Below, piece after piece: positions 59,482-64,000 of a DNA stretch of 64,000 bases. The notes below the pieces were generated by a model that worked only from the letters and a program-made list of their open reading frames with translations, ran no database searches and was not told where the DNA came from. A program made the position numbers and the translations under genes. Numbering within the stretch: the first letter of the stretch is position 1; the number at the start of each line of letters is the position of its first letter. Origin of the DNA: a virus (taxonomy: Duplodnaviria; Caudoviricetes); IMG/VR virus record IMGVR_UViG_3300012956_000012, positions 32,001 to 96,000 of that record. One strand, given 5' to 3'.

Positions 59482-60471
59482 ATGGCAAAAGAAAAAGAAT
59501 CACTCGATGCTGTCTTAGCACGAATCAACAAGAGTGTTGGGGACGGATCAGTTTACAAATACTCTGACTACACAGGAATTCCAACAGAAAGGCTCCGTTC
59601 TGGATCCATTGGAATTGACATCCTCACCGGAGGTGGTTGGGTTATTGGACAAATGAATTACTTATCAGGATGGGAATCTTCTGGTAAAAGTACATTATGT
59701 CTATACGCAATTGCAGAGACTCAAAAACTTGGTGGAGTGGCAGCTTATATCGATCATGAGTACTCTTTCGATAAGACTTATGCCACATCTTTAGGAGTTG
59801 ATGTAGATTCAATGATCCTAGCGCAACCAGATTGCATCGAAGATGGGTACCAAATTGCATTGGACCTTATTGAATCAGGGCAAATCAATACGCTTATTTT
59901 TGATAGTATCGCTGCAGCTATTCCAAAGAAGGAACTTGAAGGTGATGTAGGAGATAAAACCATGGCTGAAAAAGCTAGATTAAACTCAATCAACTTTCCA
60001 AAGTTTTGTTTTCATGCAAAAAAGAACAACGTTACATTAATCTTCGTAAACCAACTTAGAGAAAAAATTGGAGTAATGTTTGGAAGTCCAGTAACTGAGC
60101 CAGGAGGAAATTCTATAAAATTCTTTCCGTCAATTAAAGTTGAAGTGCAGCAGTCCACAAAACTCAAAGATGGTGAAGATATTGCAGGTAATTTAGTAAA
60201 AGCTAACTGCAAGAAAAATAAAACAGCGAGGCCATTTAAAACTTGTGAGTACAATATTGTTTACGGGTTAGGTATCGATCGTAATGCTGAGGTATTGCAT
60301 TATGCAGAACAGTTAGGGATTATTGTCAAAGCTGGATCTTGGTATAGTTTAGCTGATGGTGGGACCAAAATAGGTCAGGGCGGAAATAAAGCTTTGGAGT
60401 TTTTAAGTGAAAATCCAGACTTAGTTGAACTTATTGAAGAGAGGATTTATGAAAACATTCTAAAATTATGA
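59482..60471 (+). CDS. recA: RecA recombinase
   Basis: GWESSGKST, YIDHE, FDSIAA, NQLREKIGVMFGSPVTEPGG and KAGSWY motifs. Confidence 0.97.
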   Translation: MAKEKESLDAVLARINKSVGDGSVYKYSDYTGIPTERLRSGSIGIDILTGGGWVIGQMNYLSGWESSGKSTLCLYAIAETQKLGGVAAYIDHEYSFDKTYATSLGVDVDSMILAQPDCIEDGYQIALDLIESGQINTLIFDSIAAAIPKKELEGDVGDKTMAEKARLNSINFPKFCFHAKKNNVTLIFVNQLREKIGVMFGSPVTEPGGNSIKFFPSIKVEVQQSTKLKDGEDIAGNLVKANCKKNKTARPFKTCEYNIVYGLGIDRNAEVLHYAEQLGIIVKAGSWYSLADGGTKIGQGGNKALEFLSENPDLVELIEERIYENILKL

Positions 60472-60914
60472 GTTGGAAAGTAAAGAGCTCTAAGTTTCCG
60501 AAAATAAAGGAGTGTAAATCGATCGAAGATTTCCCAGAAGGATGTATTGGATTTATCTATATGATCATGGACGCAAATGGGAAAATGTACATCGGCCAGA
60601 AATCTTTATATTCGATGCGTAAGAAAAATTTCGGTAAAAGGAAAATAGCTGAAATTACTGACAAAAGGAAAAAGACTTACGAAATAGTCAAGAGTGAGTC
60701 TAATTGGTTGACCTATACTGGTTCAAACAAAAACTTAAATGAAAATATTAAAAACGGCCTTGGAATACAAAAACTAATCTTACATTTCTGCTTTACCAAA
60801 AAGCAACTCTCATACTACGAGGTAAAAGAAATGATGATTCATGGAGTTTTGGAAGACCCAGTTAATTACTACAACGATAACATCTTAGGAAAATTTTACA
60901 GTAAAGACGTATGA
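60468..60914 (+). CDS. GIY-YIG family nuclease
   Basis: GFIY...MYIGQK...Y.GS...E...YYNDNI motifs. Confidence 0.8.
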   Translation: MSWKVKSSKFPKIKECKSIEDFPEGCIGFIYMIMDANGKMYIGQKSLYSMRKKNFGKRKIAEITDKRKKTYEIVKSESNWLTYTGSNKNLNENIKNGLGIQKLILHFCFTKKQLSYYEVKEMMIHGVLEDPVNYYNDNILGKFYSKDV

Positions 60915-61240
60915 TTAAAGTAACAAGAATAATTAAAGAGTTCACTCCGGAGTTCATGGAACGTCTAGAGAAGAAAAAAGCTGACTATGAAGCAGCTATT
61001 GCAGACTTTCCAGATGATGAGTTAATACCTCCAACTGTAAAGGTCAAAGAAGGTGACATGATTGAAATGAAAGCCCCTTTCTATATTCACCCAACTAATA
61101 TTAGAGTTATCTCAACAGATTTTGATGGCCACTTCTTACAAACTATCTGGGATGAGGATATTGATATCACAGATACACCAGCTAGAGTTTACAAAAAAAT
61201 CGAGGAGTTTTGGAAGAAAGAACGAACGAGCTTGGCGTAA
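60911..61240 (+). CDS. Hypothetical protein
   Basis: ORF with ATGA overlap. Confidence 0.7.
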   Translation: MIKVTRIIKEFTPEFMERLEKKKADYEAAIADFPDDELIPPTVKVKEGDMIEMKAPFYIHPTNIRVISTDFDGHFLQTIWDEDIDITDTPARVYKKIEEFWKKERTSLA

Positions 61241-61329
61241 AAAACGACAGTGGAAAACTTCCAGTGGGAATTGTCATTCAAAGACAGTTCCCTAAAGCTT
61301 TAAAACGTATTTCAGAAGCATCTGAATGA
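61210..61329 (+). pseudogene. 5' fragment of a disrupted DUF5664 (dATP/dGTP diphosphohydrolase) gene
   Basis: Hand translation (M)EERTNELGVKNDSGKLPVGIVIQRQFPKALKRISEASE* matches the family N-terminal pattern G.K.D.GK.....FP.AL. Confidence 0.7.
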
Positions 61330-61664
61330 GTAGATTTGAAAAGGTGGTAAAACTAAAAAATAATTTAATGGAAAATATAGGTAAGAAAGAATCAGATGGT
61401 AAATTATATTATGAAATATCTTGGGAATTTTTAGAAGAGATAGCTAAGAGGATGGCTAACAATAAGAAAGAGAAGTATGATATATATAATTGGAAAAAAC
61501 CGATGACACCAAATGGCGTAGAAGGTTTAAAACAAGCTATAACAAGACATCACATAGAAGTGATGAAAGGTAATTATAAAGATGGTAATGAAAAACTAGG
61601 ACACATTGTAGCTTATGCATGTAATGCTATGATGCTTTGGGAACAATTGAAAGACAATGGGTAG
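61326..61664 (+). CDS. dATP/dGTP diphosphohydrolase domain protein (DUF5664)
   Basis: GKKESDGKL, KYDIYNWKK, AITRH and GHIVAYACNAMML motifs. It may start at the second Met (MENIGKK). Confidence 0.8.
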   Translation: MSRFEKVVKLKNNLMENIGKKESDGKLYYEISWEFLEEIAKRMANNKKEKYDIYNWKKPMTPNGVEGLKQAITRHHIEVMKGNYKDGNEKLGHIVAYACNAMMLWEQLKDNG

Positions 61665-62904
61665 TGATAAATTAACATACGATCAAGTTATTTCTAGGCT
61701 TCTAGAAGACAATATCTATTATAAAAATAAAGAATTTACAATAATATCTAAATTTAAGGGTGGACGTTACCCACTTATAGTGAAGGATAAGTATGGGTAT
61801 CATAGAATGAGTGTCTACTCTCTACTTAAGGGTTCAAAACCATCCTCTAGATCAAGCTTATTCCCTTTAAATTATTTATCTAATAGATTGTGCGAACTGT
61901 ACACACACTTTTATAAGAGAGAGGTAGTGTTGATAGGTCCTTATAAAAAGGGCATAGACTCTATCCTAGTAAAAGATTCGTTTGGCATGTGTAATTGCAC
62001 TGTATCAAATCTTTTGAAAGGTAGAAAACCCACAATATTATCAGCAGTAGATAAGACTGAATATTTTATAAATAAGTCTAAAAAATTATACGGAGATAGA
62101 TTTACATACGAAAAAACACAGTATAAGGACAACGGTGATGGTGAGGTAATTATAACTTGCAAAAAACATGGAGACTTTAAAACAACTCCAAATATACACA
62201 TGCAGAGTCCTAAATGTAGTAAATGTCACATGAAAAATTTATCTGAGGAAGAAAGATTACGATTGTTCAAGACTAGTAGGTTATCAACTGGTGATTTCAT
62301 AAATAGAGCAGTAAAAGTACACGGAGATAAATATGATTACAGCTTAGTTAAATACACTATTTCTCACAATAATGTAGATATTTTATGTCACGAGCATGGG
62401 GTGTTTAAACAAAAAGCAAACAATCATTTAAATGGATCTGGTTGCCCAGCGTGCAGCAACCAATACACTGTAGGAAGCTTAAAATGGTGGTGCCACTTAT
62501 GTAATGGCAAGCAGGGTATCTTATACATACTAAAATGTTATAATAATGATGAGGTATTTATTAAAATAGGTATAACATGTAATAGTATAAAATATAGATA
62601 TAGGAAGAAAACGCAAATGCCTTATAATTATGAGGTAGTTAGTACTATATCAAGTAATAATTTAAAACTGTTGTATCTTACAGAAGCGGCCTGCAAGAAA
62701 AAACTAAAACCTTATAGATACGCACCTAAAAATAGTTTTGGAGGTAGCCAAACAGAGGCTTTTATTTTAAATAATGAAGGATACCACACAAAAGAAAATG
62801 AAAATGAAAATAAATTCAAAGACATTGAGCATTTGGTCCACGCCGTATGGAATGGGCTTCAACTTTTAGAAGCAATTGAGAATGAGAGAAAAGAGATTGG
62901 ATAA
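61657..62904 (+). CDS. Free-standing homing endonuclease (zinc-ribbon repeats + GIY-YIG-like domain) with a fused DUF5664 C-terminal remnant
   Basis: Two copies of GD.(F/Y).Y...Y....V.I.C..HG.F.....H....C..C; GILYILK...FIKIGIT; tail EHLVHAVWNGLQLLE. Confidence 0.8.
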   Translation: MGSDKLTYDQVISRLLEDNIYYKNKEFTIISKFKGGRYPLIVKDKYGYHRMSVYSLLKGSKPSSRSSLFPLNYLSNRLCELYTHFYKREVVLIGPYKKGIDSILVKDSFGMCNCTVSNLLKGRKPTILSAVDKTEYFINKSKKLYGDRFTYEKTQYKDNGDGEVIITCKKHGDFKTTPNIHMQSPKCSKCHMKNLSEEERLRLFKTSRLSTGDFINRAVKVHGDKYDYSLVKYTISHNNVDILCHEHGVFKQKANNHLNGSGCPACSNQYTVGSLKWWCHLCNGKQGILYILKCYNNDEVFIKIGITCNSIKYRYRKKTQMPYNYEVVSTISSNNLKLLYLTEAACKKKLKPYRYAPKNSFGGSQTEAFILNNEGYHTKENENENKFKDIEHLVHAVWNGLQLLEAIENERKEIG

Positions 62905-64000
62905 ATCAGCAGGAGGTACAAGTAAAATTATAACTCCATTGGCACCACATCAAAAAGTAGTATCAAACTTTTTAAGATCAAATGATATATCAATTCTAAT
63001 TGGGCAAGCTGGTACCGGTAAGGATTTTGTACAACTTCACCGGGCAGTGGACGGACTTTTAAAGAAAGAGTTCGAAAAGATTGTCATTACAAAACCTGCG
63101 GTAGAAGTAGGAAAATCAATCGGTTTCCTTCCTGGACCTCAACCTTTAGACAGTAAGGTACTGACGCCAAATGGTTGGGCGACTATAGAAAATATAGAAG
63201 TTGAAGATAGTGTTATAGGTAAGGATGGTAAAGCATATAAAGTTACTAACAAAAGCTCTGTAAACAAAGAGCCAGTCTACCTAGTAAAAACAACAGATGG
63301 TAGGGAAATGGAGTGTTCCACATTACACTTGATGCATACACTAGATGCTAATGATAAAAAACATAGGCTAGATAAAAAGAAATATAAAAAAGATTATAGT
63401 GGTAGTGTTAAGACATTAAAAGAAATTATTAGCACATTATATACAAAAAATGGTAGACCCAACCATTACATAAATTACTGTAGTCCTATCGAATTTGAAA
63501 GCGTAGAAAAATTTATACACCCATATTTACTAGGGGCAATACTGGGAGATGGGTTTATATCAGATAGTGTAGGTGTTTCCAATACTGATGAAGAACTTAT
63601 AACTAAGTGTAAAAATATTTGTAAGGATATGGGTCTTATTATGAACGGAGGTGCTAATGATTCTATAACTTACTACATTTCTAGTAGTAAGGAGAACAAT
63701 AAGCCTGCAAAAGAAGTTATTATTACGAATATTTCTACTAAAGATGAAAGGAGATACAAGACTATCGGTGAGGCTTTAAAATATGAAGAGATAAAAAGAG
63801 GTACACTAAATAGTAGGTGTAAATCTGAATCCATAGTTGGTGAGCTACAGTACTCCTTTGGTGAAAAAGAGGGTGTATATACGAACCCAATAAAAGAGGA
63901 ACTTAGAAAATTAGGGTTAGATGGTAAAGGCGCAAAAGAGAAGTTTATACCTGATAAATATATATATTGCTCCAGTATAGAAGAGAGGGTAGAACTCCTA
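62882..64000 (+). CDS. phoH: PhoH-family ATPase interrupted by an intein (runs off the window; not in the ORF track)
   Basis: MREKRLDK...GQAGTGKD...KIVITKPAVEVGKSIGFLPG (85 aa), then the intein in frame. Confidence 0.9.
   Translation, partial: MREKRLDKSAGGTSKIITPLAPHQKVVSNFLRSNDISILIGQAGTGKDFVQLHRAVDGLLKKEFEKIVITKPAVEVGKSIGFLPGPQPLDSKVLTPNGWATIENIEVEDSVIGKDGKAYKVTNKSSVNKEPVYLVKTTDGREMECSTLHLMHTLDANDKKHRLDKKKYKKDYSGSVKTLKEIISTLYTKNGRPNHYINYCSPIEFESVEKFIHPYLLGAILGDGFISDSVGVSNTDEELITKCKNICKDMGLIMNGGANDSITYYISSSKENNKPAKEVIITNISTKDERRYKTIGEALKYEEIKRGTLNSRCKSESIVGELQYSFGEKEGVYTNPIKEELRKLGLDGKGAKEKFIPDKYIYCSSIEERVELL
63137..64000 (+). mobile_element. Intein with LAGLIDADG endonuclease, N-terminal Pro
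   Basis: Block A PQPLDSKVLTPNGW; block B DGREMECSTLHL; PYLLGAILGDG; KFIPDKY...ERVELL. Confidence 0.9.

Follow-up and report, generated by a model that had tools for sequence, protein, structure and literature searches.

A phage PF18909 gene probably disrupted and replaced in place by a module of a foreign-clade PF18909 gene and a predicted T5orf172 homing nuclease

The window analysed here is a stretch of 64,000 nucleotides (nt), positions 32,001-96,000 of the virus record IMGVR_UViG_3300012956_000012, a member of the Caudoviricetes of 105,974 base pairs (bp). In this window, a phage gene of the PF18909 family (also named DUF5664 or dGTP_diPhyd_N), referred to below as the resident gene, is split by foreign DNA that carries a complete PF18909 gene of another clade, here called the prime clade, followed by a gene for a nuclease of the T5orf172 type. 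It is probable that this cassette represents a two-gene selfish module, composed of the foreign-clade PF18909 gene and a coupled T5orf172 homing nuclease, which has lodged in the phage's own PF18909 gene. A more ambitious proposal, that the cassette is an actively homing element which brings its own replacement, has the lost 146 bp of the resident gene as its target and the orphaned gene ends as its homology arms, and has jumped between two PF18909 clades with similarity at the profile level only, is put forward as a serious, still tentative possibility. The gene order along the + strand is recA, a segE-like gene, a gene of 109 amino acids (aa), an open reading frame (ORF) of 39 codons, a 112-aa ORF, a 415-aa ORF and phoH, and the features that make up the insertion and its two anchors are the following.

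60911-61240, + strand: 109-aa gene, the left synteny anchor, overlapping the start of the resident gene by 31 nt
61210-61329, + strand: orphaned 5' end of the resident PF18909 gene, with a TTG start and 39 codons plus TGA (39/39 aa identical to P0002)
61328-62823, + strand: foreign insert of 1,496 bp (blastn breakpoints against contigs L011-L015)
61326-61664, + strand: complete incoming PF18909 gene of the prime clade (PF18909, 47.3 bits)
61657-62904, + strand: 415-aa T5orf172 endonuclease ORF, GIY-YIG superfamily (PF10544, 29.2 bits)
62794-62811, + strand: (GAAAAT)x3, encoding ENENEN, within the insert, in the C-terminal linker of the nuclease
62824-62904, + strand: 3' remnant of the resident PF18909 gene, with 26 codons and the stop codon (aa identity to P0001, 26/26)
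62882-63136, + strand: N-extein of phoH, the right synteny anchor (PF02562; 84/85 aa identical to L011 PhoH)

When the C-terminal 44 residues of the nuclease ORF were compared with a set of 5.8 billion proteins, two PF18909 proteins were retrieved, one of 115 aa and one of 114 aa (P0001 and P0002, respectively); P0002, the intact resident protein of 114 aa, matches PF18909 with 63.7 bits, and the cluster around it at 90% identity has nine members. The intact gene is carried by five contigs from five sequencing runs (L011-L015), in the order recA, segE-like gene, 109-aa gene, intact PF18909 gene, phoH, and the nucleotide identity of the flanks to the window is 95-96% for these sister contigs, with a lower value of 88-91% for L015. 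In L011 the intact gene occupies L011:3245-3589. The initial annotation, made from the letters of this stretch, had supposed that relatives would have an intact allele between the 109-aa gene and phoH; this is exactly where the five contigs have it, and the two fragments found in the window are letter-for-letter pieces of it. Homology to L011-L015 in blastn ends at 61327 and restarts at 62824, and in place of the 1,496 bp of the window the sister allele has 146 bp (L011:3363-3508, residues 40-88), which contain the conserved KY and RH motifs, so that the middle of the resident gene is indeed missing, as had been suspected.

The two ends of the resident gene can be followed residue by residue. 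The 39-codon ORF, taken earlier for a DUF5664-type N-terminus, is identical to residues 1-39 of P0002 (39/39). At the other end, the last 26 residues of the nuclease ORF (62824-62901) match P0001 at 26/26 and P0002 at 25/26 positions, which bears out a resident tail on the nuclease and shortens it from the ~40 aa first assumed. The profile searches that had been suggested for the fragments gave a mixed answer, since the N-fragment alone, being too short, had no match in a Pfam scan, while the last 44 residues of the 415-aa ORF matched PF18909 positions 64-94 with an expectation value (E) of 0.011; the clear family match is that of the parent protein P0002. Immediately outside the insert, the 100 nt on the left are identical to L011 (100/100) and the 100 nt on the right differ at one position (99/100). 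Resident DNA reaches up to 61327, and the TGA of the 5' fragment arises at the junction; the start codon of the 112-aa ORF, which overlaps this TGA, is composed of a resident A and T and a G from the insert. On the left, the two sequences simply abut, and any overlap between them would be no longer than 1-3 nt. The whole operon remains an unbroken series of overlapping ORFs, in which the overlap of the resident gene with the upstream 109-aa gene is preserved. On the right, the nuclease ORF reads in frame through the resident tail and ends at the resident stop, and therefore the overlapping start of phoH, whose ATG (62882) sits inside that tail, is left intact.

The arrangement is not an assembly artefact, because a second assembly (L026) is 100% identical to the window over 4,844 nt spanning both junctions, and a 523-bp European Nucleotide Archive (ENA) scaffold from a third sample (L027) contains the left one. 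L027 is identical to the window over positions 61290-61586, after which it has unrelated G+C-rich sequence (L027:298-523); it is probably chimeric, yet it gives independent support for the left junction. A PF18909 scan of the whole record (105,974 bp) gave two matches only, the incoming gene and the tail of the nuclease, and the incoming gene is thus the sole complete PF18909 gene detected in the 106-kilobase (kb) record. Other searches around the locus returned little: a megablast of the region and a tblastn with the 109-aa protein against 50,697 phage records gave no match, neither the 109-aa protein nor the intact allele retrieved anything in scans of IMG/VR, a RecA scan found relatives at ~30% identity only and was uninformative, a PDB sequence search with the intact allele had nothing significant, and the Pfam and PHROG searches assigned the 109-aa gene to no family.

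The incoming gene is a complete member of the family, with 47.3 bits against a PF18909 gathering cut-off of 27 and coverage of profile positions 3-91 of 99. It encodes 112 aa from the ATG at the junction, or 98 aa from an ATG at 61368, the start position used by the copy in a second cassette-bearing contig, L016 (see below). BLASTP detects no significant similarity between the incoming and the resident type, and only a profile-profile alignment (hhalign) relates them, colinear from end to end with 26% identity and E 3e-4. In a maximum-likelihood tree of 31 domains, the resident type and the prime clade separate with 100/100 support, and both cassette copies (window and L016) are placed in the prime clade. 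The suggestion of a complete and very different DUF5664 gene between the two fragments is therefore upheld, as is the separation of resident and inserted copies in a phylogeny. Compared with the 50,697 phage records, the incoming gene finds only weak matches with 28-38% identity. Both types match the same PHROGs, including the dATP/dGTP pyrophosphohydrolase family. It has been established that a stand-alone DUF5664 protein, that of Arthrobacter phage Wayne, has deoxynucleoside triphosphate (dNTP) pyrophosphohydrolase activity (PMC12884076). By analogy, both PF18909 types are predicted to be dNTP pyrophosphohydrolases, the measured activity being that of the Wayne protein and not of these clades. 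The incoming gene has 83% aa identity to the L016 copy, with a proportion of nonsynonymous differences (pN) of 0.07 and a saturated proportion of synonymous ones (pS).

The second gene of the cassette encodes a predicted free-standing homing endonuclease of the T5orf172/GIY-YIG type. The 415-aa ORF matches PF10544 (T5orf172) with 29.2 bits against a cut-off of 20 over residues 287-374, and phrog_681, an endonuclease family, with E 4e-43. Six residues (G287, Y290, K303, G305, R314 and E367), corresponding to GIY/YIG-like motifs plus an Arg and a Glu, are invariant in six nuclease homologues and, judging from the GIY-YIG literature, are putatively catalytic. The N-terminal part contains two CxxC...CxxC units and an internal 46-nt repeat; in the Pfam scan PF05265 (DUF723) stays below its cut-off (13.5 against 20.9 bits), and the precomputed annotation gives PF05265 zinc fingers for the window nuclease and nearly all its homologues. 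The architecture so predicted, a C-terminal T5orf172 domain with putative zinc-finger repeats, is the one described for phage T5orf172 homing nucleases in the portion of PMC10448857 consulted. The start of the nuclease overlaps the incoming gene by 8 nt. Its native part, as judged by alignment with P0004, P0007, P0010 and P0014, runs to 62823, where its own last ~13 codons have been swapped for the resident tail. Such a 415-aa nuclease ORF, carrying 26 C-terminal residues of another protein, is a trap for annotation. Between the window and L016, the ratio of nonsynonymous to synonymous rates (dN/dS) of the nuclease is ~0.10.

The native home of this module can be recognised at prime-type loci. 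Four other contexts contain the closest homologues of the nuclease (47-64% identity). The nuclease of L017, L019 and L020 lies directly 3' of a 248-313-aa protein with a C-terminal prime-type PF18909 domain, and the 8-nt overlap between PF18909 gene and nuclease seen in the window and L016 is also present in L017 and L020, L019 having a 1-nt gap instead. In L021, L022 and L025 the prime-type gene is followed at once by a 148-aa gene without the nuclease, and homologues of this 148-aa gene come just after the nuclease in L017 and L020, an order also given for L019. The nuclease is thus polymorphic in presence at both kinds of locus: at the prime-type locus it is present in L017, L019 and L020 and absent in L021, L022 and L025, and at the resident-type locus it is present in the window and L016 and absent in L011-L015. 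Because prime loci occur with and without it, the nuclease is, on the evidence of these sequences, a free-standing gene of variable presence that is linked to the prime-type gene at its 3' end. Of such a locus, the insert in the window represents the PF18909 domain of the prime-type gene, a few linker codons and the nuclease without its final ~13 codons, and the idea that the nuclease travels with a replacement gene finds its counterpart in a conserved two-gene module on other contigs.

The prime-type PF18909 domains are usually found at the C-terminus of 250-330-aa proteins whose N-terminal ~70 aa are conserved and whose middle varies greatly; the coordinates of the long forms are these.

L017:5262-6008, L019:737-1678, L020:185-1078, L021:3293-4282 and L022:3434-4318: long prime-type proteins

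NUMOD1, a module characteristic of homing nucleases, is matched by the middle of the long L020 protein (E 5e-5). Among the resident-type representatives, too, many bear long and unrelated extensions at the N-terminus. Between phoH and the long PF18909 gene, L022 contains a 205-aa ORF starting MVYFIKAGDYIKVGYS (L022:2309-2926), which by eye looks like a T5orf172/GIY-YIG-type gene.

The phage with the second cassette has a RecA 65% identical and a PhoH 68-71% identical to those of the window. L016 shows the order resident-type N-fragment, 98-aa prime-type gene, nuclease, resident-type tail and phoH; its N-fragment has the stretch GIVIQRQFP in common with that of the window, and its nuclease has 65% aa identity to the window nuclease. 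The right junction lies at the identical codon in both (KFKD|IE), and the fused architecture must be old, because L016 has it too. Between the two cassettes synonymous sites are saturated, while pN amounts to 0.07 (PF18909 gene) and 0.20 (nuclease); from this comparison both cassette genes are seen to be under purifying selection and to have been kept functional for long. On the other hand, the arms of the window cassette look fresh. The 200 nt around the insert have 1 difference from L011, against ~9 expected at the regional average of 95.5%, and synonymous divergence in the neighbouring genes is 0.15-0.27. We read this as a sign that the cassette entered the window allele, or exchanged arms with it, recently; an independent insertion, or vertical descent in which the arms were renewed, may also account for it. 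An old fusion with fresh arms is the pattern expected of repeated homing into new alleles.

The mechanism proposed is as follows. Resident-type alleles that are still intact would be cut by the nuclease, the most likely place being inside, or at one border of, the 146 bp absent from carriers, which would be immune for want of these 146 bp. The break would then be repaired from a cassette-bearing genome, with the orphaned gene ends and their neighbours serving as homology arms. Hydrolase function would never be lost along the way, as the cassette would supply a working substitute, probably translated in coupling with the nuclease through the 8-nt overlap, and neither intron nor intein would be needed. 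Since neither DNA comparison nor pairwise protein comparison detects similarity between the two gene types, the left side at least of the first jump, from a prime-type locus into a resident-type gene, would have required non-homologous joining. Both cleavage of the resident allele by this nuclease and the route of insertion are steps that we infer from sequence comparison. The selective neutrality of the insertion, likewise presumptive, is supported by the strong purifying selection on the incoming copy and by its standing as the sole complete PF18909 gene.

Several observations weigh against this reading, or at least fit other histories as well. A target site for the nuclease was sought and none was identified, and among 8 prime alleles no diagnostic substitutions were seen between those linked to the nuclease and those free of it. 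The window and L016 do not have the same left junction, either by position or by sequence, and the 40-47 nt before the incoming gene differ as well; independent insertions or decay of unconstrained DNA would explain these differences as well as homing would. Beside the insert, no tract that would point to co-conversion from a divergent donor can be seen, the mildly raised divergence at 62924-63123 being nearer to the phoH intein than to the insert. Only two cassette-bearing lineages (window and L016) were found, and nuclease queries of IMG/VR and JGI metagenomes gave no further cassette-bearing loci. The L016 junctions are not anchored, because an exhaustive HMMER search with the intact allele retrieved representatives with at most 55% identity, none of them recognisable as the L016-lineage counterpart of the intact allele. 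Nor does codon usage identify the cassette as foreign; it is a weak marker of such origin here, because recA is an outlier. Finally, cassette alleles are far rarer in the data than intact ones, and the cassettes are about as divergent as their backbones, points to which we return below.

The contrast in codon usage had been noticed early, in that the cassette is richer in ATA codons than recA. The figures hold (ATA accounts for 21/31 Ile codons in the cassette and 2/30 in recA) and the interpretation does not, the contrast reflecting an unusual recA, whose codon usage is atypical for the genome. Among the 43 ORFs of the window, the ATA share of Ile codons has a median of 0.41 and a 90th percentile of 0.68, and the values of the cassette genes, 0.56-0.86, lie within the range of the window. 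Codon usage was thus rejected as proof of foreign origin. The G+C content is somewhat better evidence: that of the cassette genes is 30-32% against a median of 35.8%, the lowest and fourth lowest of the 43 ORFs, and that of the insert as a whole is 30.9% against 37-39% in the flanks.

The repeat (GAAAAT)x3, correctly placed near the right junction by the initial annotation and contained within the insert, ends 12 nt from that junction; it is absent from the L016 nuclease and from the native homologues, and is probably a slippage expansion. There is also a perfect 11-nt direct repeat, ATTCAAAGACA, with one copy in the resident N-fragment (61276-61286) and the other ending at the right junction (62814-62824). 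Of the 11-mers elsewhere in the window, only 0.024% match the flanks (400 nt in all), and the placement of the repeat would have a chance of ~1/1,000, judged post hoc; as a trace of the junction it was discarded, since it fits no simple junction model and is not in L016. A scan for promoters and terminators gave counts at or below the shuffle expectation, so that a promoter-like site at 61336-61364 is not taken as evidence.

An unlikely, still credible, alternative is a one-off illegitimate recombination, in which the 3' part of another phage's prime gene and the neighbouring nuclease gene were joined to the resident gene by chance in a mixed infection and persisted because they fortuitously restored its function; the nuclease would then target its original locus and would not home into the resident gene. 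The two gene types have no usable homology, and the left junction, a plain break with hardly any overlap, differs between the window and L016, all of which would suit a chance event, as would the failure to identify a target site and the excess of intact over cassette alleles. What argues against it is that the same gene was struck in lineages whose RecA proteins are only 65% identical, with the right junction at the same codon, and that this right junction is old while the arms in the window are nearly identical to the intact alleles of the sisters. From the combination of an old right junction and fresh arms it follows that the cassette has moved between resident-type alleles, or that its arms have been renewed since the fusion.

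We regard it as quite improbable that the insertion took place once, in an ancestor of the window phage and L016, and was inherited vertically, the sisters having regained an intact gene from cassette-free phages. In such a scenario the nuclease may be inactive or domesticated, for instance as an anti-satellite nuclease like Odn of ICP1; T5orf172 nucleases have reportedly been co-opted. The divergence of the cassettes (nuclease 65% aa identity) does resemble that of the backbones (RecA 65%, PhoH 68-71%), as vertical descent would predict, and the right junction is common to both lineages. However, ancient fragments should have decayed, whereas the N-fragment in the window keeps its start codon and its 39/39 identity, and the scarcity of differences in the flanking 200 nt (1 against ~9) is likewise contrary to a long residence. 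In addition, the G+C content of the window cassette is below that of its backbone, while that of the L016 PF18909 gene matches the L016 backbone.

That the insert is a self-splicing element or a chimeric contig is hardly conceivable: although it lies within coding sequence, with the nuclease ORF in frame with the end of the gene and a true intein 230 bp away in phoH, 49 resident codons are gone, so that joining the ends cannot restore the gene, and the junctions recur in the second assembly and, on the left, in the third sample. A group I intron was discarded because of these missing codons and because Rfam had no match up to E 1 in 60400-64000, and an intein at PF18909 because of the TGA after the N-fragment, the lack of a Hint match in the insert and the deletion of the middle of the host gene.

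The neighbourhood of the cassette contains other mobile genes, which are listed here together with recA.

59482-60471, + strand: recA (from the ORF list)
60468-60914, + strand: separate, free-standing SegE-like GIY-YIG endonuclease gene, 148 aa (PF19835, E 3e-23)
63137-64000, continuing to ~64399, + strand: phoH intein with a LAGLIDADG-type nuclease (Hint match; gap in homology to L011 at 63136-64400)

The phoH intein has ~421 codons (L026:3981-5243) and belongs to the 650-aa PhoH of L026, with Hom_end and LAGLIDADG_3 matches, and an uninterrupted PhoH of 226 aa is found in the sisters L011-L014 and in L016. Cassette and intein represent two independent selfish insertions 230 bp apart, both absent from the sisters. 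Immediately to the left of the intein, extein DNA has 90-91% identity to L011, slightly below the regional average. The segE-like gene, a third nuclease gene within the same 3.5 kb, is, unlike the cassette, also carried by the sister contigs L011-L013. About 1.1 kb downstream of phoH, L011 contains an 80-aa gene with a match to the Acb2/Tad1 hairpin domain (L011:5335-5577).

The nearest phage analogue of the proposed element would be the 'intronless homing' of T4 SegF at gene 56 (Belle et al. 2002, via PMC2988022). As in the window, a free-standing gene for a GIY-YIG-type nuclease lies there beside a nucleotide-pyrophosphatase gene, in a promoter-less cassette whose start overlaps the upstream gene, and its spread swaps the allele of a competitor for the donor allele plus nuclease, as proposed here. 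In the SegF case the alleles are homologous, are exchanged by homologous recombination and leave one clean gene, whereas here the incoming gene comes from a clade without pairwise similarity, is lodged inside the resident gene and leaves both resident ends orphaned; in addition, the nuclease here belongs to the T5orf172 type, with putative zinc-finger repeats. Closest in logic, by analogy, would be the endonuclease ORFs with a foreign C-terminus of fungal mitochondria, known from atp6 of Allomyces macrogynus and from atp6, atp9, cox2 and nad3 of Glomus (PMC3630166). They too enter a coding gene bringing a foreign replacement for the part they displace, without splicing, and downstream of them the native end persists as a remnant, unchanged from the end found in close relatives; the ORFs are frequently in frame with native sequence. 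In the fungal genes the C-terminal segment alone is replaced and the product combines a native core with a foreign end, while in the phage a complete gene is supplied, the N-terminus is orphaned too and 146 bp are deleted. The features of the window cassette match by analogy the fungal-type class that carries a replacement, a mechanistic class and not a sequence family. Nucleases inside phage genes without an intron are also known from mobE in nrdA of Aeh1 and mobA in T4 gene 39/60 (PMC2988022); there the two halves persist and together still form a functional enzyme, whereas here the middle is lost and a second gene would supply the function. The T5orf172 nucleases of ICP1, T5-like and other phages have the domain architecture predicted here, a C-terminal T5orf172 domain with repeated DUF723/CapR-like zinc fingers, and occur next to or inside conserved genes with variable presence, according to the portion of PMC10448857 consulted, and that portion of the survey mentions no nuclease that brings along a complete substitute for an interrupted gene.

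The locus offers a clean case, in which empty and filled alleles stand in near-identical backgrounds, both breakpoints are placed at single-base resolution and the module can be traced to its native locus, and the mechanism makes a defined prediction, that the cleavage site lies within the 146 bp. In the usual view, homing nucleases spare their host by residing in introns or inteins, at intergenic sites, or in split genes with working halves. The locus described here would represent a fourth way of avoiding harm in a phage, in which a whole substitute from a distant branch of the enzyme family is carried into the disrupted gene. It also suggests a route by which genes of nucleotide metabolism may pass from one phage lineage to another when the divergence between them precludes homologous recombination. 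If the proposal is true, phage homing nucleases can colonise useful, even non-orthologous, genes without splicing machinery, and enzyme subfamilies would be swapped between phage lineages as the nucleases spread.

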